Below are positions 575 to 14,071 of a DNA stretch of 64,000 bases, one piece after another. The notes below the pieces were generated by a model. The model saw only the letters and a list, made by a program, of their open reading frames with translations. It ran no database searches and was not told where the DNA came from. The translations under genes were made by a program, and so were the position numbers. The stretch is from Thermodesulfobacteriota bacterium (GTDB taxonomy: Bacteria; Desulfobacterota; Desulfobaccia; Desulfobaccales; 0-14-0-80-60-11): NCBI GenBank assembly GCA_040757175.1, contig JBFLXM010000012.1, positions 15,806 to 79,805 on the forward strand, read 5' to 3'. Positions within the stretch are counted from its first letter, which is position 1; every line of letters starts with the position of its first letter.

Positions 575-970
575 ATGCCCAAGTATCTGATTCATCACCA
601 CTTGGCCCGCCGGGAGCATTGGGACTTGCGCCTGGAAGTGGAGGGGGTGTTGAAATCCTGGGCCGTGCCCAAGGAGCCCTCCCCTGACCCCCACGTCAAA
701 CGCCTGGCCGTGATGGTGGAGGACCATCCCCTGGAGTACGGCGATTTTCAGGGGACCATTCCTGAGGGCCAATACGGGGCCGGAGAAGTGAGGATTTGGG
801 ATGCCGGCCCTTACGAAAACCTGAAGCCCCTCCCCATGGCCGCGGCCCTGGCCCAGGGCCAGGTGGAGGTGCGCCTGGAGGGCCGCAGGCTGCAGGGCAA
901 CTTCGCCTTGATCCGTTTTAAAGGCAAGGGTAAGGAAAAGGACTGGCTCTTCTTTAAGATGAAGGACTGA
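575..970 (+). CDS. Stand-alone LigD-type 3'-phosphoesterase (DNA ligase D PE domain)
   Basis: Motifs HHHLARREHWDLRLE, LKSWAVPK, KRLAVMVEDHPLEY, GEVRIWDAG. Confidence 0.9.
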   Translation: MPKYLIHHHLARREHWDLRLEVEGVLKSWAVPKEPSPDPHVKRLAVMVEDHPLEYGDFQGTIPEGQYGAGEVRIWDAGPYENLKPLPMAAALAQGQVEVRLEGRRLQGNFALIRFKGKGKEKDWLFFKMKD

Positions 971-1580
971 CCCTTGGATTTTCTATTACCAGCCGGGCCG
1001 CGGCCTGAAAGTCTTCCGGGGTATTGAGATTCATAAAGCTGCGGCCCTGGGGGTCCAGGCGGGCCACTTCCTCCGGGGGCAGCGCCAGGGGGCGGCACTG
1101 GTCCAGGAAGCGCTGCACCTGGCGGCCCCCCTCATGCAAGAAAGCCGTGAGCCGCGACAGAAGACGCACTGCATAGATGCCGGGGAAGGGCTGGGGCCCC
1201 CGGGAAGTATGGCAGATTACCGCAGTCTTGACGCCCTGGGCAGCCCGGGAGGCCAGGGCCGCCAGCAAAGACGGCTCCAGGAAGGGGACATCCGCCGCGG
1301 CCGCCAGCACCAGGGGCGTACGCGCATAAAACAGGGCGGTCTCCAATCCCCCCAGGGGTCCTTGCCAGGGCCGGAGGTCGGTGACCAGGGGCAGGCCTAA
1401 GGAGAGATGGGATTGGGGTTGGTTGGTGACCAGCCAGCATTCAGTGACCCAGGGGGCCAGCGCCTCCGCCACCCATAAAGCCAGGGGCCGGCCCCCCAGC
1501 AGCAGGGAGGGTTTATCCTGCCCCAGCCGCCGGCTCCTGCCCCCGGCCAAAACCGCGCCAGTTATTGGTTGGGAAGACAA
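954..1580 (-). CDS. mobA: Molybdenum cofactor guanylyltransferase
   Basis: LAGGRSRRLGQDK, GPLGG, ADVPF, FMNLNTPED motifs. Confidence 0.92.
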   Translation of the reverse strand: MSSQPITGAVLAGGRSRRLGQDKPSLLLGGRPLALWVAEALAPWVTECWLVTNQPQSHLSLGLPLVTDLRPWQGPLGGLETALFYARTPLVLAAAADVPFLEPSLLAALASRAAQGVKTAVICHTSRGPQPFPGIYAVRLLSRLTAFLHEGGRQVQRFLDQCRPLALPPEEVARLDPQGRSFMNLNTPEDFQAAARLVIENPRVSPSS

Positions 1581-1643
1581 AGACCCACCCCCTCTATCTT
1601 GCGCGTCTATCCAAGGTTGTCAGGAAAAATGCGGCGGCAGGGA

Positions 1644-2087
1644 TCAGGTTCCCGGTTTGTCCAGGATCTTTTCTTTCTTAACATCCCGGTTCAGATAGAC
1701 GGCGCACTGCTGGCAAGGGCCGTTGCAGAGGGTGTCGCTGTATTCCCGCACTTCATAACAGGGACGCCAGGGGAGTTTGTACGCTGGGCAGTCTTCCTTC
1801 TTCTGGCAATCGAAAATATTCCAGCAGGGGGCCAGGACCATCAGGTTCCGGAGACAGGCCAGGGTGAAGCCCCGGTCATGGATCAGCCGGTTGATCTGGT
1901 TGATTTGGGCGACGTCAAAAGTGGAATAGAGGCGGTTATTGGTATTCTTTTCCCTTAACGGCTTGATAAAGCCCTCTTTTTCATACTCCCGAATGCGCTT
2001 TTGGGAGAGGTTCACATGGCGGGAGACTTCATTGATCAGAAAGAGGTCGCCTTCGCCTGGAGCCCGTTTGTTTTTTCCTCGGGGCAT
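1644..2087 (-). CDS. MerR-family HTH regulator with C-terminal Cys/Trp-rich (CW-type) domain
   Basis: N-terminal INEVSRHVNLSQKRIREYEKEGFIKP..NNRLYS (MerR HTH). C-terminal CWNIFDC..DCPAY..PCYE..C..PCQQCAVY. Confidence 0.85.
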   Translation of the reverse strand: MPRGKNKRAPGEGDLFLINEVSRHVNLSQKRIREYEKEGFIKPLREKNTNNRLYSTFDVAQINQINRLIHDRGFTLACLRNLMVLAPCWNIFDCQKKEDCPAYKLPWRPCYEVREYSDTLCNGPCQQCAVYLNRDVKKEKILDKPGT

Positions 2088-2350
2088 GATCAATTCTATA
2101 AGGGATTAAGTTTAAACAAATTTTACATAAAACGCTTGGATATACAAGAAAAATTTCGGACCCCAAGAAATTTTTTTCCAAAGGGGGGACAGGCTTCCGG
2201 AATGCCTTGCAGAGCGGGTTAAGGCAGTCTTTAGAAGGGTGGGGGAGGGGAAAGGGGGAAAGAGGCAGGGAAGGGAGCGCCGCCGCCCGCGGCGGTTATC
2301 GAACCGGGGAGGGGGCCATCCTGCATTCCTGGTCTCTCTCCCCACGGCAG

Positions 2351-3505
2351 TTAGATCATCCTGGCCTTCAAGTTCCGGGAAACGTCGGCAAAGCCGATCA
2401 CCCGGTCCCCATAAAAGATTATCTGGGAATATCCATACCACCAGGTGTTGCCCCAAACATAGGTGGGGTAACCCTGGACCGCCAGCACTCGGCGTTTGCT
2501 GGAGCCTAAGGTAAAATATTTCCGGGAGGCTTTCCGGGCCGTCCGGGGCCGGGAGGGGGCCCTGACTTCCAGGTTGTGGCCGGTGTTGGCGTAGGCGACG
2601 ACCCGATCCCCCCGGAATTTCACCTCCGATTCCCCGTACTTCCAGGTATTGCCCACCACTCCGGTGGGGGTGCCCTGTACTGCCAGGACCCGGTCCTTGC
2701 TGGAGCCCACCGTGAAATGGACGGGACCGCGGCCAGCCGCGGCCGGAACTCCCGGCGCCAGGCGAACCCGCAGGTTTCGGGAGATATTCAAGTAGCTGAC
2801 CACCCGCCGGTTTTTAAAGGTCACCGTGGACAGTCCGTACTTCCAGGTGTTGTGGAGGATGTGTTGAGGAGGGCCTTGGACGGCCCACACCTCGTATTGG
2901 CTGGAGCCCAAGGTGAAATGGCCCTTGGGGGTCGGAAGGGTGGGACGGGCCGGACTGCCGGCCTTGGCTCCGTTCTGGGGGGCAGCCGCTGGGGGCGCGG
3001 GCTTCCCTCCCTGGATGGCTCCGGAGGCTGGAGGAACAGAGGCCGCCTCCTGGGCCGTTGTCGCCGCTGGCTGGGAAGGGGAGGTGAGATAGTTATAAAT
3101 CAGGGGAGACAGAAAAAGACCGGTTGCCAAAGCCAGGCCCAATGCCAGGATCCCGGCATGCTCCCGGAACCAAATCTGGCCGGTGCGGATCAGGGGAAGA
3201 ATACTTCCGGCCGTAGAGCCGGGTCCGGTTCCTGAAAGGGCCGCGTCCGCACTAGGTGCGGCTACCTCCAGGGGCCCCGTCGCCTTTTCCAGAAGGTGGG
3301 TTTTTAAAGATTGATACGCGGCGTTGATTTCCCTCATCCGAGCCCGGGCCTTTTCCTGAATATAGGGTTCCCGGGGGAAGCGGTCCGGATGCCAGAGCCA
3401 GGCCGCATCCCGGTGGGCCTGCCGCACTTCCGCCAGGGAGGCGCCGGGCTTAAGACGCAAAATTTTATAGGAGCGAAGCAGATGGTCCATAGCTGGCCCC
3501 TTCAT
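2351..3505 (-). CDS. J-domain (DnaJ-like) membrane protein with three C-terminal ~55-aa SmpA/OmlA-like repeats
   Basis: N-terminal J domain with HPD motif (WHPDRF), one hydrophobic helix (ILALGLALATGLFLSPLIY), Pro/Ala linker, three FT(L/V)GSS..V.AVQG.P....NTW.YG repeats. Confidence 0.8.
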   Translation of the reverse strand: MKGPAMDHLLRSYKILRLKPGASLAEVRQAHRDAAWLWHPDRFPREPYIQEKARARMREINAAYQSLKTHLLEKATGPLEVAAPSADAALSGTGPGSTAGSILPLIRTGQIWFREHAGILALGLALATGLFLSPLIYNYLTSPSQPAATTAQEAASVPPASGAIQGGKPAPPAAAPQNGAKAGSPARPTLPTPKGHFTLGSSQYEVWAVQGPPQHILHNTWKYGLSTVTFKNRRVVSYLNISRNLRVRLAPGVPAAAGRGPVHFTVGSSKDRVLAVQGTPTGVVGNTWKYGESEVKFRGDRVVAYANTGHNLEVRAPSRPRTARKASRKYFTLGSSKRRVLAVQGYPTYVWGNTWWYGYSQIIFYGDRVIGFADVSRNLKARMI

Positions 3506-3579
3506 CGAAGATTCATTAATTAGACAGGAAAAGCCGGGGAAATATTAATTTGAGGGGCATTTATCCCAGTTTGAGCCGA

Positions 3580-5184
3580 TCACTTCGTCCTTGATAACCA
3601 CTTCACCTGCTCCATCACCGCCTCGGCCTCTGATTTCTTTCCCTCCTGGTTATAGGCCAGGGCCAAGTTGCGGTAAAAGCTGACATTATCCGGGGTGAGC
3701 CTGATGGCCTCTTTAAAGTGGGGGATGGCTTCTTTGAACCTGCCCTGTTTGGCGTAGGCAATGGCCAGGTTGTTATAAGCTGAAGGATATTGGGGGGCCA
3801 GGGACAGGGTCTTTTGGTACATGGCGATGGCCTGATCGAGCTGGCCCCGGTTCACCAGGTCCATGCCCAGGTGGTGATAGGCCATGTAATTGTTGGAGTT
3901 AAGGTCGATGGCCCGGGTGAAGAGAGTCTCGGAGTTCCGCCAGTAGCCCGCCTGGCCCCAGGAGGCCAGCAGACAGGCCAGGAGCAAGGCGGCCGCGCTG
4001 GTTGACAACACGATACTCCGGTGCCGCCAACCGGCGGTGGCCTCGGAAATCCCCCAGGCGGCAATGATGAACAGGCCGATAAACGGCACATAGGTATACC
4101 GGTCCGCCATGGCCTGGCCCCCCACCTGGACCAGCCCGATCACCGGCACCAGGGTGCCCAGGTACCAGAGCCAGCCCACCGCCAGGTAAGGATGACGCCG
4201 GGAGCCGTAAAGCAGAAAAACCGTCAAAACCAGGAGCGCGAGGCCGGCCCCCGCGGCTTCCCACCAAGGCACCGGCGCCAGGGGGTAAAAAAAGATCATG
4301 GGGTAAGGCCAGAACATCTTCACCAGATACTGCACATAGGCCACCAAGGCGTTGGCGATCCGGGGCCCCAAGGGCCGGATGGCCATGGGCATCACCGCGC
4401 CGCTCCCTTTTTGGGCCGCCACGGTAATGAGACAGGAAAGCACGGTCAGGGCCAAGAGGGGGATTTTCTCTTGGAGCAGTTGCCAGTAAACTCTCTTGGC
4501 AGCCACCGGCTGGGGGTCGCCGGTTCCGGCTACCCCCGGCGCCGCACCCGGCCCGCCCGGCACCCGGCCCAGGGGCCAGTAGTCCAGGAGCAGGAGAACA
4601 AAAGGCAGGGTGACCACCATGGGTTTGGTCATCAATCCCAGGGCAAAGGCCAGGACTACCGCCAGATAGCGGAGGAGGGAGGGCGCGGCCACATAGACCG
4701 CGTAAGCCCACAGGGCAAGCAGCCAAAAAAAGGTGCTCAGGACGTCTTTTCTTTCCGCGACCCAGGCCACCGACTCCACGTGCAGGGGGTGCAGGGCGAA
4801 AAGCGCGGCCACCGCGGCGCTGGGCCAAAGGGCCCGGGTTACCCGGGCCAAAAAGAGGAAGAGGAGAATGGTGTTGGCCAGGTGCAGGACCACGTTGGTG
4901 ACATGATGCCCCCCGGGCCGCAACCCGAAAAGGTGGCAATCCAGCATGTGGGACAGCCAGGTCAAGGGGTGCCAGTTGCTGGAGTGGAACGCGGTGAAGG
5001 CCCATTTTAACCCCGGCCAGGTGAGTCCGGCCCGGACCACGGGGTTATTGGTGACATACATGTCGTCATCAAAGGTGAGGAAGTCGTGGCGGCTCACCTG
5101 GCTATAAACCAATAAGGTCCCCCCGGCGAGCAGGAGGCAAAGAAGCAGGGGCAAGCCCCCGGGAAGGCGCCGCAACCTGGTCAT
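3580..5184 (-). CDS. GT-C superfamily (TMTC-like) multi-pass glycosyltransferase with C-terminal TPRs
   Basis: First-loop DD motif (FDDDMYV), WHPLTWLSHMLD, LHPLHVESVAWVAERKDVL, DRYTYVP, many TM helices, TPR helices (AYNNLAIAYAKQGRFKEAI). Confidence 0.85.
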   Translation of the reverse strand: MTRLRRLPGGLPLLLCLLLAGGTLLVYSQVSRHDFLTFDDDMYVTNNPVVRAGLTWPGLKWAFTAFHSSNWHPLTWLSHMLDCHLFGLRPGGHHVTNVVLHLANTILLFLFLARVTRALWPSAAVAALFALHPLHVESVAWVAERKDVLSTFFWLLALWAYAVYVAAPSLLRYLAVVLAFALGLMTKPMVVTLPFVLLLLDYWPLGRVPGGPGAAPGVAGTGDPQPVAAKRVYWQLLQEKIPLLALTVLSCLITVAAQKGSGAVMPMAIRPLGPRIANALVAYVQYLVKMFWPYPMIFFYPLAPVPWWEAAGAGLALLVLTVFLLYGSRRHPYLAVGWLWYLGTLVPVIGLVQVGGQAMADRYTYVPFIGLFIIAAWGISEATAGWRHRSIVLSTSAAALLLACLLASWGQAGYWRNSETLFTRAIDLNSNNYMAYHHLGMDLVNRGQLDQAIAMYQKTLSLAPQYPSAYNNLAIAYAKQGRFKEAIPHFKEAIRLTPDNVSFYRNLALAYNQEGKKSEAEAVMEQVKWLSRTK

Positions 5185-5206
5185 GGAAAGGATGTTTCTC
5201 CAGATG

Positions 5207-5337
5207 CTGCTTCGAAAGGTTCCAGTTGCTGGTGGCACAGGCGTCTCGCCTGTGCGACGCTGGGGCGGGCGAGACGCCCGCCCCTACGGATTTTTACAAT
5301 TTTATGGGTGAGCCTAGGGCTTATGAACGATTGCTCT
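5207..5337 (-). mobile_element. Short non-coding repeat element, copy A (MITE/REPIN-like, asymmetric ends)
   Basis: On the minus strand it starts AGAGCAATCGTTCAT and ends GGAACCTTTCGAAGCAG, matching the ends of the copies at 13317 and 63316. Contains two GC hairpins (5235-5255, 5263-5283). Confidence 0.65.
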
Positions 5338-5363
5338 GCTCAATTTACCACCTTGGATCATTC

Positions 5364-5401
5364 AAAGCAAAGGGCCCTTCGACCGAGAGCGGAAGGACCC
5401 T
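5364..5401 (-). terminator. Probable intrinsic terminator after the autotransporter gene
   Basis: Minus strand AGGGTCCTTC-loop-GAAGGGCCCT followed by TTGCTTT, about 55 bp after the stop codon. Confidence 0.55.
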
Positions 5402-5456
5402 GTAGCAGTCTATGAAGCCGGCAAGATTTGCCTGGACGGGTGGTCGCCGTCTTTCC

Positions 5457-8400
5457 TCAGAACTCCCAGCGGAGGCCCGCGTTCAAGCTATGGGCAGTGT
5501 AGCTCCCCCGCCCCACTTCCACGTTGTAATCGAGCTGGGCCCTGACGTTCTTCCTGATCCCCAAGGTGCAGTTGGCCCCCAACACGGCAAAGTCCCGGTG
5601 GGGGCTGTCGGTCTGCCAGGTGGAAGTGCTGCTGCCCTGGCTGAGGCGCGCATCCAAACCCCGGCTGTCATTGGCGAATTCGTGCTGGTAGGTCGCATAG
5701 ACCTGGGGCACCACCAGGGTGGAATTCCGTTTTAGGGGCAGGGAGACCTTGGCGCCTACGCCGCTCTGCAGCGAGGCCGCGCTCTGGGAGCCCACTTGCA
5801 GATTCAGAGAATTGGCGCCGTCCTCCGCAAAGCCGCCCACCCAGATCTGGGAGTAGGCCAGGGAGACCAGGGGGGTAACCACCAGGGGCCGCCACTTCAG
5901 GTCGTATCCCGCTTCCCCGTAGCCGTTAAACTGATGCCCGGTGGGGGAACTTTTGGCCCGGCGGTCAACCCCCTCAAACGCGATATTACGGTCCAGGGTG
6001 AATAGGTTAAGGCTGTAACCCAAGGACCCGAAGGCATAGCCGGATTCCGGGAGATAGGCCGCATAGGCGGTGATGGGCCAGTTGTTGTTGGCTACGTTAC
6101 CTCCGGAGCCGCGGAAGCTGGCGCCCAGGTGGTTGTAACCGGTGGCCAGGCCCACCAGGAGGTCGTCCCGCACCCGGTAGTCGCCTCCCAGGGTGAACCC
6201 GGCCCCGGTATAACTATAGCCCGTCTGGTTGACCGTGGTTCCCTGACCCCCCAGCAGGAGATTGGGCAACAGGTAGAAGGCCAGGGGGGAGGCCCCGGCC
6301 CCGGCCTTCTGGCCGGTTATGAGTTCGGCCAGGCTGGAGCCGTTATAGGCCAGCATCAGACCGGCCCCGGAAATCCCGTAATTGCCCAGGGAGTCGAGCC
6401 CGAACGCGGTTTGGACCTCCCGGGTGCCGAAACGCCCGCTGGTGATCCACTGGGCCAGATTGCGCATCTGGGAACCGGCCCCGGTCAGGCCCAGGCTGGC
6501 CAGAGCCCCGGCCTTCTCCGGGGAGATCTGGGTGTAGGCGTTGGCCACCGCCCCAGTGGTGGGGAGGCTGTCGATGGCGTTTAAGACATAGTTCAGATCC
6601 CCGGTGGCGCTGTCAGCCACGCTGCCCAGCATGTTCCCCACAGACCGCTGATTCTTGGTTAGCCCCGCCAGATTGCTGTAATTGCGCTGCACCCAGAGGT
6701 CGACGCTGTTGGCGTTATAACGGGGTTGCCAAGACAAGGTGGGGCCGATTTGCTGGTTGAGGATACTGCTGAAGGTCCCGGTTATGCCCCCGGCGGCCGT
6801 AATTATTCCGGAGAAGACCTGGTTGCCCAGGGGACGATAGCCGCCCAAAAGACTTATAGCCAGGGTGCCGTTTAGGCTGGCGGTGCCGCCGTTGACGGTA
6901 ATCCGGTCGTAAATGGAGGCGGAGGCGATCTCCGCCTGATAAACGCCCGCGGCCGTCTGGGCATAGGAGCCGATGATGGTAAGAACGCCCACGGACTGGC
7001 CGGGGCTGACGGTGCCGGCATTCGTCAGACTCCCGAAAATGGTCCCGGTGCCCATGACCAGGGTCTGGTTTACCAGGTATCCGCTGTAATCCCCGCCCTG
7101 GAAATTCAAAATATTGTAGTTCATCTCGCCGCCGCTGCGGAGGAAGTGGCCCCCGGCGTTGATATTGATGAGGCCCGCGCTGAGACTGCCGCCGTCCAGC
7201 TCATAGGTGCCGCTGCTGCCGGCGCCCGCGGCCAGGGTCAGGGCCCCGGCCACCATGTGGCTGCCGCCCCCCTGGATGAAGGCGCCAAGGCCCAGGTTGC
7301 CGATGACCTCATTGCCCCCCACCGCCAGAACGCCGTCAATTAAAGCATAGGAGCCCATGCCGCTGGTTTGGTCACCCAGAAAGAGATTGTTGGCCACGGT
7401 GTGGCTGCCGCCGGTTTGCATCATCGCGCCGCTGCCGGTTTGGCCCACGCAGGCATTGGCCGCGGCCAGGCTGCCGCCCGTCATGAAGTAGGTGCCGTCA
7501 CCGCCGGACGCGGCCCCCAAGATGAGGTTGTTGGCCACCGTATTGGTGCCGCCGCTCTGCAAGAAGACCCCCAAACCGGCATTGCCGATCACCGCGTTGC
7601 CGCCCACGGCCAGGCTGCCGGCGTCCAACTGGTAAAGGCCATAGCTGCTGTCTTGAAGGCCCAGGGAGAGGTTGTTGGCCACGGTGTGAGTGCCGCCGGT
7701 TTGCATAAACGTGCCGCCGCTGGCTTGGCCCACGCAGGTATTGGCCGCGGTTAGGCTGCCACCCTCCAACAAATAGGCGCCGTTGCCGCCGCATACAGCC
7801 CCCAGGGTGAGGGTGTTGGCCACCGTATTGGTGCCGCCGCTCTGATAGAAGGCTCCATCACCGGCATCACCGATGACCGCGTTACCGCCCACCCCGAGAC
7901 TGCCGCCAGTTAAAGTGTAAGCGCCGTCGCTGCCGTTGACGAGCCCCAAAACCAGGCTATCGGTCACGGTGTGGACGCCGCCGCTCTGGGTGAAGGCGCC
8001 CAGCGCGGCGATGCCGATATATTCCGTAGCCGCGGTGAGAGTGCCGCCGATTAAATCGTAGGCGCCCTCGCCGGCAACTCCCACCCCCAGGCTGCCGGCC
8101 ACGGTGTGGGTGCCGCCGCTTTGGGTGAAAGCGCCGCTGCCGACGCTGCCGATTTCCTCGAAAGCAGCCGAGAGGCTGCCGTCGTTGAGGTTATAGACGC
8201 CGCTGCCGTCCGCAAAGAATCCCAGATACAGGCCGTTGGTCACGGTGTGGGTGCCGCCGCTTTGGGTAAACGCGCCGCTGCCGTCCATGCCGAGTATGGC
8301 GGCGTCAGACGACAGGCTGCCGCCGCTGAGATTATAGGCGCCGCTGCCGGTGGAACCGCGTCCCACATAAAGGGTAGCCACCTCGTGGGTCCCCCCGCTC

Positions 8401-11400
8401 TGGCTAAAGGTCCCACTGCCGCCGAGCCCGACGATCGTATTGGCGTTCACCACCAGGCTGCCGTCGCTCAGGTTGTAATTACCGCTGCCGCCGGCATAAT
8501 ACCCCAGGACCAGGTTGTCGGTGGTGTTGGTGCCGCCGCTCTGGTTCAGAGTGCCGCTGCCCGCGTAACCCACATATTCATTGGCCGCGGTGAGGCTGCC
8601 GCCGCTAAGGTTGTAGGTGCTGCTCTCGCCGGCGTTTTTCCCCAGGTAGAGGTCGGTGACAGCCGCGGCCCCGCCGGTCTGGTTAAAGAGGCCACCCTGG
8701 TTCACATTAACAGTCCCCGCGGCCAGGCTGCCGCCCTGGAGGTTGTAGGTGCCGCTGCTGCCGGACACGTTCGCCAGGGTCAGGACGCCGGTCACCGTAT
8801 GGGTGCCGCCGCTCTGGGTAAAGGTGCCGCTGCCCTCGTTGCCGATGATCTCATCGGCTACCGCCAGGCTGCCGCCGCTCAGGTTATAGGTGCCGCTGCT
8901 GCCCGCGTAAGTGGCCAGGGTCAGGGTCCCCGTGGTGTTGGTGCCGCCGCTCTGGTTGAAGGTGCCGCTGCCGCCGTCGTCGCCGCCGATGAATTCCATG
9001 TCCGCGGCCAGGCTGCCGCGGCTCAGATTATAGGTGCCGTTACCATAGACTCCCAGAAACAGTCCCGCATCACCCGTACTGTTGTGCATGGTGTTGGTGC
9101 CGCCGGTCTGGGTGAAAGTGCCCGTGCCGCAGTTGCCGATGATTTCATACTCGGCGGAGAGGCTGCCGTCATTCAAGGTGTAGTTGCCGCTGGCCGTGTC
9201 ATCGTACCCCAGGATCAGGGAGCCGGGGAGAAATGTGTCGCCGGGCACCGTATGGGTGCCGCCGTTCTGGACAAAGCTGCCGCTGCCGCTGAAGCCGATG
9301 TATGAGTAATAATAGGCTTGGAGGCTGCCGCCGTTCAGGGTATAGGTGCCGCTGGCCCCGGCGTTCTCCCCCAAGCCGATGGCATAAGCCGTGTTGGTGC
9401 CGCCGTTCTGGGTGAACGCGCCGCTGCCGTCGTAGCCGATGGATTGGGACCAGGCTTCGAGGCTGCCGTTGTTCAGGGTATAGGTGCCGCTGGCCCCGGC
9501 GTTCAGCCCCAGGTAGAGTTCACCGCACTGGTGGGAGCCGCCGGTTTGGGTGAAGGCGCCGCGGCCGGAGCCGCCGATCATTTCATAATCGGCCGCGAGG
9601 CTGCCGCCGCTCAGGTTGTAGGTGCCGCTGCTGCCGGCGCCGTGCCCCAGGATCAGATCGCCGGTCACCGTATGCGTGCCGCCGGTCTGGGTAAAGGCGC
9701 CGGTGCCTGAGGAACCCACCCGCTCATAGTCGCCCACTGAGAGGCTGCCGTTGTTCAGGGTATAGACGCCGGTGCTGTTGGCACCGTCCCCCAGGATAAA
9801 ATGACCGTCCACCTCATGGGTGCCGCCGTTTTGGGTAAAAGTGCCGGTGCCATTGACGCCGATGTACTCGTTGTCGGCCCCCAGACTGCCGCCGTGCAGA
9901 GTGTAGCTGCCGCTGGCTCCGGCTTGCATCCCCAGGTAGAGTTCACCGCAGTTGTTGGAGCCGCCGGTTTGCGTGAACGCGCCGCTGCCGGAAGCGCCCA
10001 CATGCTCATTGCCTTGAACCAACAGGCTGCCGCCCTGGAGATGGTAGGTGCCGCTGCCGGTGCCGGCGTAGCCCAGGTTGAGGTCGCCGGTCACGGTATT
10101 GGTGCCGCCGCTCTGCGTAAAAGTGCCGGTGCCGTTGTAGCCGATATATTCCTGGGTGGCCGTCAGCGTCCCGGCCAGGGTCATGGTGCCGTCGTTGGTG
10201 AGGCCGTCGCCGTTGAGGATCACCGTGCGGCCCGCGGCGATATCCAGGGTGGTGGCGGAGTAGTTGGCCAGGCCGTTGCCCGCGGTGAAATCGGCGTTGA
10301 AATTCACCGCGCCGTAGTTCAGCAGGCGGCCGCTGAAAGTGCCGCTATTGTAATTGAAGGTGCCCCGGTTCTCCAGGGACCCGGTCACCGTGCCCCCCTG
10401 CTGGTTGAAGGCGGTGGCGTTCAGGTTGCCGCCGGTCTGGTTGAAGACACCTCCGGCGTTCAGGTCGATGGTCCCCGCGGTCAGGCTGCCGGCGCTCAGG
10501 TTGTAGGTGCCGGTGCCGGCGCCGTCGCTCACCATGATGGAGCCCGCTGTGTGGCTGCCGCCGCTCTGGCTGAACGTGCCGCTGCTGCCGCAGCCGATAT
10601 ATTCGCCGCCCGCCACCGTCAGGCTGCCGCCGCTCAGATTGTAGGTGGCGGTGCCGAAAACCCCCACATAGAGGTCCGAGCCGGCCGTGTGGGTGCCGCC
10701 GCTCTGGTTGAAGGTACTGGTGCCCGAATAACCCAGGCATTCAGCATCGCCCACCGCCAGGCTGCCGGTGCCGCTCAGGTTATAGGTGCTGCTTTGGGCG
10801 GGGTTATCGCTCATAATGAGGTATGAGTATATGGTATTGGTGCCGCCGCTCTGGTTGAAGGTGCTGGTGCCGCCGTCGCCCATGGCGCCGATGTACTCGT
10901 TAGCGGCCGAGAGGCTGCCATTAATAAGATTGTAGGTGCCGCTGGTACCGGCGAAGGAGACTACTTCCAGGTCGCCGCTGATGGTGTTGGTGCCGGCGCT
11001 CTGGGTGAAGACGCCGCTGCCGTAATAGCCAATAGACTCTTTGCCGGCCGCGAGGCTGCCCCCCTCCAAGTTATAGGCGCCGCTGCTGCCGGAGGCAAAC
11101 CCCAGATACAGAACCGTGGACACCGTATGGGTGCCGCCTTTTTGGGTAAAGGCGCCGCTGCCGGAGAAGCCCACGTAGGCAGCGCCTGAAGCGCCCACGG
11201 AGAGGCTGCCGTCGTCCAGGGTATAGGTGCCGCTGCCGCCGGCGTAGCGCCCCAGGATCAGATCGCGTCCCACGGTGTTGGTGCCGCCGTTCTGGGTGAA
11301 GGCCCCGCTGCCGGAGAAGCCCACGAATTCATCTTGCGCGGAAAGGCTGCCGCTGCCGCTCAAATTGTAGGTGCCGCTGCCGCCGGCACTATTCCCCAGG

Positions 11401-12959
11401 GTCAGGCTGCCGGACACCGTGTGGGTGCCGCCGCTTTGGGTGAAGGCGCCGCTGCCGGAGTAGCCCACGTATTCACTGGCCGCGGTGACGCTGCCGTTGC
11501 TCAGGGTGTAGCTGTTGCTGACCCCGGCGTTTCTGGCCAGGTATAGATCGGTGAAAGCCGCGCTGCCGCCGCTCTGGCTGAACGTGGTGAAATCAAGCTG
11601 GCCCCCGGTCTGGTTGAAGAGGCCGTTGGCGTTCAGGTTAACGGTCCCCGCGGTCAGGCTGCCGCCCTGGAGGTTATAGGTGCCGCTGCTGCCGGCGTTG
11701 GCCGCCAGGGTCAGGGCGCCGCTCACCGTATTGCTGCCGCCGCTCTGGGTAAAGGCGCCGGTGCCGTTGTAGCCGATATATTCCTGGGTGGCCGTCAGGT
11801 TTCCGGCTAGGGTCATGGTCCCGTCGTTGGTGAGGCCGTCGCCGTTGAGAGTCACCGTGCGGCCCGAGGCAATGGCCAGGGTGGTGGCGGAGTAGTTGGC
11901 CAGACCGTTGCCCGCGGTGAAGTCGGCGTTGAAATTCACCGTGCCGTAGTTCAGGAGCCGGCCGCTGCAAGTGCCGCTGCTGTAGTTGAAGGTGCCCCGG
12001 TTCTCCAGGGACCCGGTCACCGTGCCCCCCTGCTGGTTGAAGGTGGTGGCGTTGAGGCTGCCGCCGGACTGGTTGAAGACGCCCCCGGCCTTCAGCCCGA
12101 CGGTCCCGGCCGTCAGGCTGCCGCCCTGGAGGTTGTAAGTGCCGCTGCTGCCGGAATTTTGCGCCAGGGTCAGGGCGCCGGTCACCGTATGGGTGCCGCC
12201 GCTCTGGGTAAAGGCGCCGCTGCCGGAGAAGCCCACGTATTCATCCAACGCGGAGAGGCTGCCGGTGTCGCTCAGGTTGTAGCTGCCGCTGCTGCCGGAG
12301 TTGGCCCCCAGGCACAGGATGTTGGTCACCGTGTTGGTGCCCCCGCTCAGGTTGTAGCTGCCGCTGCTGCCGGAGTTGGTCCCCAGGCTCAGGATGTTGG
12401 TCACCGTGTTGGTGCCCCCGCTCTGGCTGAAGGCGCCGCTGCCGGAGTAGCCCACGTATTCATCCAACATAGAGAGGCTGCCGGTGCCGCTCAGGTTGTA
12501 GCTGCCGCTGCCGCCGGAGCTGTGCCCCAGGCTCAGCCCGACGGTCGCTGTATTAGTGCCGCCGCTTTGGGTAAAGGTGCCGCTGCCGTTGTAGCCCACG
12601 TATTCACGGAACGCGGAGAGGCTGCCGGTGCCGCTCAGGTTGTAGCTGCCGCTGCTGCCGGCATTTTCGCCTATCCGGAGATTGTTGGAAACTTGATTTA
12701 TGTACGCGCTCTGATTTAAAACGCCCCCGGCCGCGGTGGTGCCAATATATTCGTTATCATACGTGAGGTCGCCAACAACATCGTAAGGGGAATTACTTTG
12801 CGAGACATCCACGGTCAGGTCATCGGCCGGGCACAGCCCCGGCGCCAGGACCAGCGCCAGCCCCAGGGCCGCGGCCAGCAACCCCCGCGTCCAGCCAGGA
12901 AAGTCGGGAGACGCGATGCCTTCCCGCCCTACGGCTCTTCTTTTTGCTCTGATTTGCAT
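5457..12959 (-). CDS. Giant type Va autotransporter (2500 aa) with Gly/Ser/Thr-rich beta-helix-like repeat passenger
   Basis: N-terminal signal-like segment (GLLAAALGLALVLAPGLCPA), dozens of F(T/N)Q(S/T)GGT(N/H)T..L.LG...GSG.Y.L.GGSL repeats, C-terminal ~300-aa barrel with alternating strands ending GLRWEF (terminal Phe). Confidence 0.92.
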   Translation of the reverse strand: MQIRAKRRAVGREGIASPDFPGWTRGLLAAALGLALVLAPGLCPADDLTVDVSQSNSPYDVVGDLTYDNEYIGTTAAGGVLNQSAYINQVSNNLRIGENAGSSGSYNLSGTGSLSAFREYVGYNGSGTFTQSGGTNTATVGLSLGHSSGGSGSYNLSGTGSLSMLDEYVGYSGSGAFSQSGGTNTVTNILSLGTNSGSSGSYNLSGGTNTVTNILCLGANSGSSGSYNLSDTGSLSALDEYVGFSGSGAFTQSGGTHTVTGALTLAQNSGSSGTYNLQGGSLTAGTVGLKAGGVFNQSGGSLNATTFNQQGGTVTGSLENRGTFNYSSGTCSGRLLNYGTVNFNADFTAGNGLANYSATTLAIASGRTVTLNGDGLTNDGTMTLAGNLTATQEYIGYNGTGAFTQSGGSNTVSGALTLAANAGSSGTYNLQGGSLTAGTVNLNANGLFNQTGGQLDFTTFSQSGGSAAFTDLYLARNAGVSNSYTLSNGSVTAASEYVGYSGSGAFTQSGGTHTVSGSLTLGNSAGGSGTYNLSGSGSLSAQDEFVGFSGSGAFTQNGGTNTVGRDLILGRYAGGSGTYTLDDGSLSVGASGAAYVGFSGSGAFTQKGGTHTVSTVLYLGFASGSSGAYNLEGGSLAAGKESIGYYGSGVFTQSAGTNTISGDLEVVSFAGTSGTYNLINGSLSAANEYIGAMGDGGTSTFNQSGGTNTIYSYLIMSDNPAQSSTYNLSGTGSLAVGDAECLGYSGTSTFNQSGGTHTAGSDLYVGVFGTATYNLSGGSLTVAGGEYIGCGSSGTFSQSGGSHTAGSIMVSDGAGTGTYNLSAGSLTAGTIDLNAGGVFNQTGGNLNATAFNQQGGTVTGSLENRGTFNYNSGTFSGRLLNYGAVNFNADFTAGNGLANYSATTLDIAAGRTVILNGDGLTNDGTMTLAGTLTATQEYIGYNGTGTFTQSGGTNTVTGDLNLGYAGTGSGTYHLQGGSLLVQGNEHVGASGSGAFTQTGGSNNCGELYLGMQAGASGSYTLHGGSLGADNEYIGVNGTGTFTQNGGTHEVDGHFILGDGANSTGVYTLNNGSLSVGDYERVGSSGTGAFTQTGGTHTVTGDLILGHGAGSSGTYNLSGGSLAADYEMIGGSGRGAFTQTGGSHQCGELYLGLNAGASGTYTLNNGSLEAWSQSIGYDGSGAFTQNGGTNTAYAIGLGENAGASGTYTLNGGSLQAYYYSYIGFSGSGSFVQNGGTHTVPGDTFLPGSLILGYDDTASGNYTLNDGSLSAEYEIIGNCGTGTFTQTGGTNTMHNSTGDAGLFLGVYGNGTYNLSRGSLAADMEFIGGDDGGSGTFNQSGGTNTTGTLTLATYAGSSGTYNLSGGSLAVADEIIGNEGSGTFTQSGGTHTVTGVLTLANVSGSSGTYNLQGGSLAAGTVNVNQGGLFNQTGGAAAVTDLYLGKNAGESSTYNLSGGSLTAANEYVGYAGSGTLNQSGGTNTTDNLVLGYYAGGSGNYNLSDGSLVVNANTIVGLGGSGTFSQSGGTHEVATLYVGRGSTGSGAYNLSGGSLSSDAAILGMDGSGAFTQSGGTHTVTNGLYLGFFADGSGVYNLNDGSLSAAFEEIGSVGSGAFTQSGGTHTVAGSLGVGVAGEGAYDLIGGTLTAATEYIGIAALGAFTQSGGVHTVTDSLVLGLVNGSDGAYTLTGGSLGVGGNAVIGDAGDGAFYQSGGTNTVANTLTLGAVCGGNGAYLLEGGSLTAANTCVGQASGGTFMQTGGTHTVANNLSLGLQDSSYGLYQLDAGSLAVGGNAVIGNAGLGVFLQSGGTNTVANNLILGAASGGDGTYFMTGGSLAAANACVGQTGSGAMMQTGGSHTVANNLFLGDQTSGMGSYALIDGVLAVGGNEVIGNLGLGAFIQGGGSHMVAGALTLAAGAGSSGTYELDGGSLSAGLININAGGHFLRSGGEMNYNILNFQGGDYSGYLVNQTLVMGTGTIFGSLTNAGTVSPGQSVGVLTIIGSYAQTAAGVYQAEIASASIYDRITVNGGTASLNGTLAISLLGGYRPLGNQVFSGIITAAGGITGTFSSILNQQIGPTLSWQPRYNANSVDLWVQRNYSNLAGLTKNQRSVGNMLGSVADSATGDLNYVLNAIDSLPTTGAVANAYTQISPEKAGALASLGLTGAGSQMRNLAQWITSGRFGTREVQTAFGLDSLGNYGISGAGLMLAYNGSSLAELITGQKAGAGASPLAFYLLPNLLLGGQGTTVNQTGYSYTGAGFTLGGDYRVRDDLLVGLATGYNHLGASFRGSGGNVANNNWPITAYAAYLPESGYAFGSLGYSLNLFTLDRNIAFEGVDRRAKSSPTGHQFNGYGEAGYDLKWRPLVVTPLVSLAYSQIWVGGFAEDGANSLNLQVGSQSAASLQSGVGAKVSLPLKRNSTLVVPQVYATYQHEFANDSRGLDARLSQGSSTSTWQTDSPHRDFAVLGANCTLGIRKNVRAQLDYNVEVGRGSYTAHSLNAGLRWEF
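10100..12140 (-). repeat. Internal duplication of a ~135-aa passenger block (copies about 10100-10510 and 11730-12140)
   Basis: Both copies encode FNQQGGTVTGSLENRGTFNY.SGT.SGRLLNYG.VNFNADFTAGNGLANYSATTL..A.GRTV.LNGDGLTNDGTMTLAG.LTATQEYIGYNGTG with near-identical DNA. Confidence 0.9.
12285..12425 (-). repeat. 75-bp (25-codon) tandem duplication in the autotransporter passenger
   Basis: GGTNTVTNILSLGTNSGSSGSYNLS followed directly by GGTNTVTNILCLGANSGSSGSYNLS. Confidence 0.85.
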
Positions 12960-13034
12960 GGCCCTTCCTCCCCCGGCAGCAGACGGCCCGGGCTAATACC
13001 AATGCTGTTCACTAAACAGTATGAGATTTTCCCT

Positions 13035-13157
13035 GGTTCCCAAGTTGCACTTGGGAACCCATTTTTCCGGCAAAGCTGCGCTTTGGCACCTTATTCCCGG
13101 TGGTGCCCAAGCGCAGCTTGGGCCAAAATTCCCGTTCCCAAGCACAGCTTGGGAACG
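13035..13157. repeat. Cluster of REP-like palindromes (GTTCCCAAG-N5/6-CTTGGGAAC family)
   Basis: GGTTCCCAAGTTGCACTTGGGAACC 13035-13059, CAAAGCTGCGCTTTG about 13071-13085, GCCCAAGCGCAGCTTGGGC 13105-13123, CGTTCCCAAGCACAGCTTGGGAACG 13133-13157. Confidence 0.8.
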
Positions 13158-13171
13158 AGGGTAAAACGTTT

Positions 13172-13238
13172 TCTCGCAAAGACGCAAAGATCGCCAAGTT
13201 TTTTTATCCTCTCTTTGCGTCCTTGGCGTCTTGGCGAG
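13172..13238. repeat. REP-like imperfect inverted repeat built from CGCAAAGA/CGCCAAG units
   Basis: TCTCGCAAAGACGCAAAGATCGCCAAG ... CTTTGCGTCCTTGGCGTCTTGGCGAGA. Confidence 0.7.
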
Positions 13239-13316
13239 AAACAATAAAGAGATCCTCGAAAAGACACATTACCCCCCATTTCGGCGCGTGAGACACGCCC
13301 GACGATGGACATTTTC

Positions 13317-13488
13317 AGAGCAGTCGCTCATGATCTGTTGGCTCTCTCAAAAGAATGAAAAGGCTGGGTGGGGCGGGCCTCCGTGCAGTGGGGCGGGCGT
13401 CCCCGCCCGCCAACCTCTATGGCGGCCAGAGACGGCCGCCCCACCAACTTGGAACTTGGAACCTGGAACTTGGAACTTTTCGTAGCAG
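13317..13488 (+). mobile_element. Short non-coding repeat element, copy B
   Basis: AGAGCAGTCGCTCAT ... GGCTCTCTCAAAAGAATGAAAA ... GGTGGGGCGGGCCTCCGTGC ... GACGGCCGCCCCACCA ... GGAACTTTTCGTAGCAG. Blocks are shared with 63316-63450. Confidence 0.75.
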
Positions 13489-13573
13489 GCAAAGCTACCT
13501 GAAGGCGGGATGCGCTGCGCTTTCCCGCCCTACACCCTCCTACACTCTTCCCTGCCCGGTGTTCCCCGGCACC

Positions 13574-14071
13574 CTAGCGGCGCGCCGGGGCTGCCTTCTT
13601 TTCCCCTTTGCCCGGCTTACCCTCGGGCGCAGCCGCCGGCGGCGGGCTCACCGCCGGTCCCGGGGCCGGCCCGGCCGCGGCCGGGGCCGCCTTGGCCTCC
13701 CGGATGAGCCGGGCCACCTGGGAATCCGGGGCCACCGGTTCCAGGCGCACGATGTGCCGGGTATTGATGCGCATGAAATCCGGACCGTGCCACTCGCTGC
13801 CCAACCGCATCAGGATGCTCCTGGCCTCTTTTTTCTCGCCGCTTACTAGCCGCTGGACGTAATAAACATCCCTGAGAGTAAGGAAGGCGGAATCGGTTGC
13901 CCCGATCTTGCCGAAAAAGACCTGGCCGTTGTCCAGAAACACGGCCTGATACTCCGTGGGAAAAGAGAGGTCGCCGCCCCCCGGGCAGCCGGCCAAGAGG
14001 GCCGGCAGCAGCAAGGGAAACAGCAAGATAAGGACCCGAAAGGTTCTCAAGCCCTGTTGCGGTGGTGGCAT
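13574..14071 (-). CDS. Putative lipoprotein of unknown function
   Basis: Signal peptide with lipobox LLAGC, compact domain YQAVFLDNGQVFFGK..DVYYV..GPDFMRINTRHIV, Pro/Ala/Lys-rich tail. Confidence 0.75.
   Translation of the reverse strand: MPPPQQGLRTFRVLILLFPLLLPALLAGCPGGGDLSFPTEYQAVFLDNGQVFFGKIGATDSAFLTLRDVYYVQRLVSGEKKEARSILMRLGSEWHGPDFMRINTRHIVRLEPVAPDSQVARLIREAKAAPAAAGPAPGPAVSPPPAAAPEGKPGKGEKKAAPARR

Follow-up and report, generated by a model that had tools for sequence, protein, structure and literature searches.

A GT-C membrane glycosyltransferase with tetratricopeptide repeats as a candidate accessory of a repeat-rich autotransporter family

We analyzed a 64,000-nucleotide stretch of a Thermodesulfobacteriota genome (contig C12, positions 15806–79805, hereafter the window; the host genome comprises 4.1 Mb in 85 contigs), in which a GT-C-type membrane glycosyltransferase with C-terminal tetratricopeptide repeats (TPRs) is encoded directly downstream of an autotransporter built from repeats of about 47 amino acids. 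The organism is an uncultured sulfate reducer of the Desulfobaccales, a label that its close protein matches also bear. We found a GT-C fold in structural models, an invariant acidic motif, a consistent topology model, an adjacency of the two genes that is conserved within a single enzyme clade, and a distribution of that clade nested within that of the repeat proteins. On the best reading of these data, the enzyme seems to be an optional accessory of the repeat-protein family, neither its obligate nor its exclusive partner, and we estimate at roughly 0.4 the probability that it acts as an optional periplasmic O-glycosyltransferase for the 47-amino-acid repeat family. Comparative genomics and modeling make it reasonable to regard the two genes as a testable candidate enzyme–substrate pair.

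Results

A sequence-only reading of the window had described a 2500-amino-acid, Ser/Thr/Gly-rich autotransporter followed on the same strand by a GT-C enzyme with a DD motif and TPRs, and both genes were confirmed on the minus strand. Their features, in window coordinates, are as follows:

3580–5184, minus strand: GT-C-fold membrane glycosyltransferase with predicted periplasmic C-terminal TPRs, 534 amino acids (homologues, Pfam, models)
3592–3933, minus strand: about 3.5 TPRs, predicted to face the periplasm (Pfam TPR families, model helices)
3940–5184, minus strand: GT-C transmembrane catalytic domain, about 11 transmembrane helices (AlphaFold2 helices, hydropathy, Foldseek)
5457–12959, minus strand: classical (type Va) autotransporter, 2500 amino acids (translation, PF03797 match)
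5523–6245, minus strand: autotransporter beta-barrel domain (PF03797, E 5e-51, 174.3 bits)
7140–12602, minus strand: passenger with about 36 tandem Gly/Ser/Thr-rich repeats of about 47 amino acids (repeat spacing, consensus)
12825–12959, minus strand: predicted N-terminal signal region, a basic start followed by hydrophobic LLAAALGLALVLAPGL (read from the translation)

In a tree of 43 transferase sequences, a clade of 25 rows (SH-aLRT 100, long stem of 0.7) contained all cases of adjacency to a repeat-family protein: 14 rows were adjacent, 8 were not, and 3 ended at contig edges, one of which has an identical metagenomic copy that is adjacent. All 18 paralogs outside the clade lacked an adjacent repeat protein. 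Adjacency in relatives, which the sequence-only reading had named as a check on its idea, was present in 14 of the 22 informative clade members and spanned several genera, and the idea was not refuted; apart from the nearest relative (G059), the other flanking genes were unconserved even inside a genus. Given that adjacent cases occur on all deep branches of the clade, the pairing looks ancestral, with about 6–8 subsequent losses.

The C-terminal anchor of the repeat protein varied among these loci. In two genomes (G005 and G016), the repeat protein upstream of the transferase had a PEP-CTERM-like tail (...PLPASVW, a hydrophobic segment and RSKK) in place of the barrel, and in a third (G010) a repeat protein with such a tail lay convergent to the transferase. 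The G005 tail scored 15.4 bits against PF07589 (E 0.02; threshold 20.7 bits), and PEP-CTERM-type repeat proteins were looked for in 11 genomes only. As far as sequence comparison goes, the pairing tracks the passenger repeat and not the autotransporter secretion route.

Both families were scored in each of the 83 genomes of an order-level survey: 50 had the autotransporter family and 32 had the GT-C/TPR family. A repeat protein was found in 21 of the 23 genomes with a clade enzyme, compared with 31 of the 60 without it (Fisher p 8e-4, a test that ignores kinship among the genomes). In the genome G015, a transferase remnant adjoined an autotransporter.

Several loci departed from the simple arrangement. 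In G049 (for example L125, 7285–13337), the lipoprotein gene that usually precedes the pair came before a tandem of two clade transferases, with a third one divergent; passenger-type repeat proteins were encoded at 12 or more loci of this genome, which had no autotransporter barrel of this family, and another anchor seems to have taken over the whole repeat family there. At L067, a divergent second GT-C/TPR paralog on the opposite strand preceded the block of lipoprotein, autotransporter and transferase (3240–5108, minus; 9812–11551, plus). At L135 (G023:C28:135000–154000), the autotransporter upstream of the transferase was split into about 14 overlapping frames (965–10034), which points to decay into a pseudogene or else to misassembly of the repeats, and the transferase beside it was also short (a 448-amino-acid frame).

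Bacterial GT-C/TPR enzymes as a whole form a very large family, with more than 8000 relatives scored in a single capped search and more than 586 loci across many phyla, and its members usually lie in tandem arrays away from any such repeat protein; paralogs outside the clade formed arrays of four to five genes in G036 (C12) and G039 (C1:1350213–1357638). A wider pairing of distant GT-C/TPR paralogs with the passenger family was ruled out (0 of 76 distant loci). A regular-expression scan for PEP-CTERM tails near distant paralogs returned 5 of 80 loci, with the tail directly upstream on the same strand at L064 and L078; given that PEP-CTERM genes are common in those phyla, this count was not clearly above background and we draw no conclusion from it.

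The transferase open reading frame spans 3580–5238 (552 amino acids counted from GTG); the ATG at 5184 is the start used by homologues and in the protein's record (MTRLRRLPGG..., 534 amino acids), which places the gene at 3580–5184. Used at whole length, the transferase returned only TPR proteins, in a PDB sequence search as well as in a Foldseek search of the full model. Because these searches were swamped by the TPRs, the catalytic domain was modeled on its own. The AlphaFold confidence score (pLDDT, predicted local distance difference test) was 85.7 for the full-length protein and 72.8 for the model confined to the N-terminal domain. When the N-terminal model was compared to the PDB with Foldseek, the top 15 matches were all GT-C enzymes, the best being Pmt4 of C. 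thermophilum (9i5k; E 2.3e-4, TMq 0.54) and the others ArnT, PglB, STT3, AglB, DPY19 and Emb. By its modeled polytopic fold, the transferase belongs to the GT-C superfamily. Searching PDB sequences with a profile built from the catalytic domain yielded no chain, even at E ≤ 10. The sole Pfam catalytic family to match was PMT_2 (PF13231), to which the transferase itself scored 22.6–23.3 bits, below the gathering threshold of 26.1, and which 11 of 18 relatives matched (best E 1.2e-10).

The translated sequence carries the acidic motif of GT-C enzymes (DD, DxD or ExD in the first extracytoplasmic loop) as D39–D40 (5065–5070), which follows the first transmembrane helix directly and was invariant in 34 homologues and in a set of 18. 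Further invariant blocks included NWHPLTW, HPLHVESVAW-ERKD and ADRYTY. Residues ~418–531 matched TPR_16 (E 1e-21) and, more weakly, other TPR families, and residues 418–531 formed seven helices in the AlphaFold model. Given the basic N-terminus (MTRLRRL) and the odd number of helices, the DD loop and the TPRs should both face the periplasm in the predicted topology.

The last ~240 residues of the autotransporter matched PF03797 over profile positions 12–255 of 255 (cut-off 26 bits), placing the barrel in this family of 12-stranded autotransporter barrels, and the C-terminus reads ...RWEF. Judging from its translation, the protein also has a predicted Sec signal and the long repetitive passenger of an autotransporter. 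Passenger residues 46–2000 were 21.7% Gly, 11.9% Ser and 11.6% Thr, with a repeat unit of 45–48 amino acids, present in about 36 copies, whose core is G.GSG.FTQSGGT.TV...L.LG...GSSGTYNL.GGSL. When the full autotransporter and pieces of its passenger were run through hmmscan against Pfam and NCBIfam, no family emerged for the passenger. A near-threshold match to TIGR04393, the repeat associated with type V secretion systems (T5SS) and PEP-CTERM, came only from a direct search of the genome with that model (22.1 bits, E 7e-4, at 12564–12680; cut-off 23), and we treat the passenger repeat as related to this family and not as a member of it. The model has 49 positions compared to the unit of about 47 amino acids here, and its two kinds of C-terminal anchor, here a barrel and a PEP-CTERM-like tail, also occurred among the relatives.

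The following features lie between and around the two genes:

5236–5254: second inverted repeat (intergenic sequence)
5262–5287: dispersed palindrome resembling a repetitive extragenic palindromic (REP) element, GTAGGGGCGGGCGTCTCGCCCGCCCC (genome-wide motif counts)
5299–5327, minus strand: sigma-70-like promoter match TTCATA-17-TAAAAT upstream of the transferase gene (consensus match only)
5363–5400, minus strand: terminator-like hairpin with a T-rich tail just past the autotransporter stop, GGGTCCTTC...GAAGGGCCC, then TTTGCTTTG
12960–13573: intergenic region of 614 nucleotides with GC-rich palindromes, REP-like units (sequence read)
13574–14071, minus strand: small lipoprotein of 165 amino acids with lipobox LLAGC and a Pro/Ala-rich tail (translation)
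2351–14071, minus strand: gene run of lipoprotein (13574–14071), autotransporter (5457–12959), transferase (3580–5184) and DnaJ-domain protein (2351–3505)

The sequence-only reading had cautioned that a terminator-like hairpin and a repeat element separate the two genes, and both are there, at 5363–5400 and 5262–5287. The 272-nucleotide gap between autotransporter and transferase had a folding z-score of −5.3, and in this genome the transferase gene is probably transcribed from a promoter of its own. The head of the REP-like element, GTAGGGGCGGG, had 224 matches in the genome with both strands counted, and the full palindrome had 46 within three mismatches. In relatives, the gap measured 20 nucleotides (G062), 146–147 nucleotides (G012, G023 and L083) and up to about 660 nucleotides elsewhere; the repeat-protein ortholog at L083 is short, at 632 amino acids. 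The 614-nucleotide gap upstream of the autotransporter holds several distinct palindromes, among them GTTCCCAAGCTGTGCTTGGGAAC, GGCGGGCGGGGACGCCCGCCCC and a tandem run of CAAGTTCCAGGTTCCAAGTTCC.

The lipoprotein, which had no Pfam or NCBIfam match, is encoded by the first gene of a conserved block of lipoprotein, repeat protein and GT-C enzyme, and usually precedes the pair. Of the 83 genomes surveyed in the order, 15 had homologues of it, almost always at this locus. Downstream of the transferase, positions 2351–3505 encode a protein that combines a J-domain, a membrane segment and, at its C-terminus, three repeats of about 55 amino acids; this DnaJ-like gene was ruled out as a part of the module, being absent at all 24 related loci checked.

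Discussion

Our results favor periplasmic O-glycosylation of the repeats in transit by an enzyme that is nested in the distribution of the repeat proteins, whose adjacency to them survived rearrangement, anchor swap and inversion, and which combines a Pmt-like fold with a protein-binding arm. The protein nature of the acceptor, its identity, the sugar transferred and the timing of the transfer are points that we infer. The 534-amino-acid protein would be a periplasm-facing GT-C glycosyltransferase dependent on a polyprenyl-phosphate sugar; it belongs to one specialized clade of the very large bacterial PMT_2/TPR family. Enzymes of this clade would add sugar to Ser/Thr residues in the repeats of the adjacently encoded protein, which at this locus is the autotransporter passenger. 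The modification would take place on the unfolded passenger during its passage through the periplasm, once Sec has exported it and while outer-membrane translocation is still to come, with the short TPR arm holding the repeat. The lipid-linked donor may be supplied by one of two full-length ArnC/PgfS-like undecaprenyl-phosphate-sugar synthases, each with two C-terminal transmembrane helices, that are encoded elsewhere in the genome (C22:32473–33501 and C80:47871–48890).

Several observations weigh against a dedicated system, as the sequence-only reading had called it, and this part of its claim was not supported. The complete, single-contig genome G039 (source of L004) keeps an intact ortholog of the transferase (73% identity) directly after the lipoprotein gene, and no barrel or passenger of this family was found genome-wide; the enzyme of G058, a 91%-complete draft, was likewise without a repeat protein. 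Conversely, 26 of the 50 genomes with the autotransporter family had no enzyme of the GT-C/TPR family at all, a sister family (f2) had autotransporters in 7 of 14 genomes and the transferase in none, and G024 had a syntenic lipoprotein–autotransporter locus in a genome with no transferase. Passengers did not differ in combined Ser and Thr content between enzyme-adjacent and enzyme-less cases (0.218 vs 0.209), and a richer Ser/Thr content of enzyme-linked passengers was ruled out by this comparison. In the host genome itself, a second autotransporter and a second GT-C/TPR copy were unlinked, and no gene for donor synthesis or for a flippase was linked to the locus of the window. There, moreover, the terminator-like hairpin, the promoter-like site and the REP-like element all part the autotransporter from the transferase.

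The two unlinked copies have settings of their own. The autotransporter paralog (922 amino acids, C4:39906–42671, no transferase nearby) sits between a biotin carboxylase gene (C4:38436–39881) and a gene for an HMGL-like/PYC_OADA-type carboxyltransferase (C4:43162–44859). Given that biotin carboxylase and partner carboxyltransferase genes normally form one operon, this autotransporter gene seems to have been inserted into a pair of pyruvate/oxaloacetate carboxylase genes. The GT-C/TPR paralog, on contig C48, is 56% identical to the transferase of the window and is preceded, 44 nucleotides directly upstream, by a gene for an 881-amino-acid fusion of serine beta-lactamase-like and DUF1343-like parts (C48:24488–27130).

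The points raised against a dedicated system also bear on the possibility that enzyme and repeat protein have no functional link, that the enzyme acts on another target (perhaps many proteins of the periplasm or outer membrane, perhaps, like ArnT, a lipid or polysaccharide) and that adjacency is a small ancestral gene block left unbroken in part of one bacterial family. This explanation, which we hold to be a serious possibility although somewhat improbable, would account for the persistence of the enzyme in the complete genome G039, the many autotransporters without an enzyme, the 8 of 22 informative clade members that are not adjacent, the unlinked paralogs of the host genome, the separate terminator-like and promoter-like signals, and a wider enzyme family so large and so often arrayed apart from repeat proteins. 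It fits less well with an adjacency that was held across several genera while all other flanks changed, that survived a swap of the C-terminal anchor as well as an inversion, and that is limited to one well-separated enzyme clade; the TPR arms and the Pmt4-like fold also point to a protein acceptor. We therefore consider optional O-glycosylation of the repeat protein to be the better supported of the two.

It is a good deal less probable that the link is real and the passenger is not the target, with the enzyme modifying the upstream lipoprotein (13574–14071) or an envelope component needed by the lipoprotein/repeat-protein system: of the partners, the lipoprotein gene keeps most faithfully to the locus, with homologues restricted to so few genomes and nearly always to this locus, and directly adjoins the transferase where the repeat protein is missing (G039 and G049), but the lipoprotein has few Ser/Thr residues (its Pro/Ala/Gly/Lys-rich tail has a single Ser), clade enzymes occur in genomes or at loci without it (G058, G045, G033 and G010), and G024 and G037 carry lipoprotein and repeat protein without a clade enzyme.

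Within O-glycosylation of the repeat family, a broader proposal would make the clade a repeat-specific periplasmic O-glycosyltransferase of beta-helix-forming repeats, whichever export route they take (barrel or exosortase). It would then be the first lipid-linked, substrate-adjacent system for autotransporter passengers and a bacterial functional counterpart of the fold-specific O-mannosylation of TMTC type. Taken as a whole, we consider this broader proposal somewhat improbable.

The existence of the bacterial GT-C/TPR family is already in print (PMC7801869), and in the literature that we searched we found no tested function for it. Most copies of the family lie in anonymous tandem arrays, while this clade has a recurrent neighbor with a defined 47-amino-acid repeat, which offers a testable enzyme–substrate pair. 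If optional O-glycosylation of the repeats is confirmed, a periplasmic, lipid-linked route would be added to autotransporter glycosylation, and T5SS and exosortase cargo would be connected via a common modification. If it is refuted, the case would stand as a warning that conserved adjacency in the GT-C/TPR family fails to identify substrates.

Comparison with known systems

Fungal and actinobacterial Pmt enzymes act on Ser/Thr-rich secretory proteins while these are translocated in the unfolded state. The transferase resembles them in having Pmt4 (9i5k) as its best structural match and PMT_2, below threshold, as its sole catalytic Pfam hit; in contrast to them, it has no MIR domain and carries TPRs in its place.

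Animal TMTC1–4, members of the GT-C/PMT clan whose acceptors are Ser/Thr residues on beta-strand-rich adhesion domains, share with the transferase 11 transmembrane helices, an acidic motif in the first loop and extracytoplasmic C-terminal TPRs, with ArnT and PMT as the nearest structures. Our topology model, with 11 transmembrane helices, a cytoplasmic N-terminus and extracytoplasmic TPRs, is of the TMTC type, and the homology shown is at the level of the GT-C clan. The TPRs noted in the sequence-only reading are present, although at about 3.5 they are far fewer than in animal TMTCs. Human TMTCs all match DUF1736 at E < 1e-19 (PMC7801869), a signature that we found, at E ≤ 1, neither in the transferase nor in any of 18 relatives. 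Given the absence of DUF1736 and the scoring of the family as PMT_2, the term "TMTC-like" is right for the layout and not for the family; the "TMTC homolog" of the sequence-only reading was correct in its architecture (11 transmembrane helices, DD motif, extracytoplasmic TPRs) and mistaken in its family membership.

The Aah and TibC heptosyltransferases are soluble cytoplasmic enzymes of another fold. They share with the system described here, as does WaaL in the case of EmaA, a glycosyltransferase with genetic linkage to an autotransporter adhesin or activity on it. For the trimeric autotransporter EmaA, lipid-linked glycosylation by the periplasmic ligase WaaL has been postulated (bioRxiv 10.1101/2022.10.31.514599). 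WaaL differs from the transferase in being an O-antigen ligase that moves a whole O-polysaccharide, and not a PMT_2/TPR enzyme.

The nearest experimentally studied analogue is TfpW, the pilin D-arabinofuranosyl transferase of Pseudomonas aeruginosa Pa5196/PA7, which has an N-terminus in the cytoplasm, 11 transmembrane helices by prediction, a DDx motif within a loop in the periplasm and, C-terminally, a periplasmic TPR domain, with ArnT as its best structural template (bioRxiv 10.1101/2020.04.19.049825). TfpW glycosylates the product of pilA, the gene immediately upstream of tfpW (bioRxiv 10.1101/2020.04.19.049825). Compared by layout and gene order only, the two systems match in the arrangement of transmembrane helices, DD motif and TPRs and in the position of the enzyme gene; they differ in that the substrate of TfpW is a type IV pilin, whereas the candidate substrate here is a beta-helical repeat protein. 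Our literature searches found no work connecting GT-C/TPR enzymes with autotransporters or with TIGR04393 repeats. The sequence-only reading had held that known autotransporter glycosylation is cytoplasmic and that a periplasmic, lipid-linked mechanism would be a new route, a view that seems overstated beside WaaL/EmaA and TfpW/PilA. Given the precedents of TfpW and EmaA, the principle was already known; the candidate substrate class and the enzyme clade are new.

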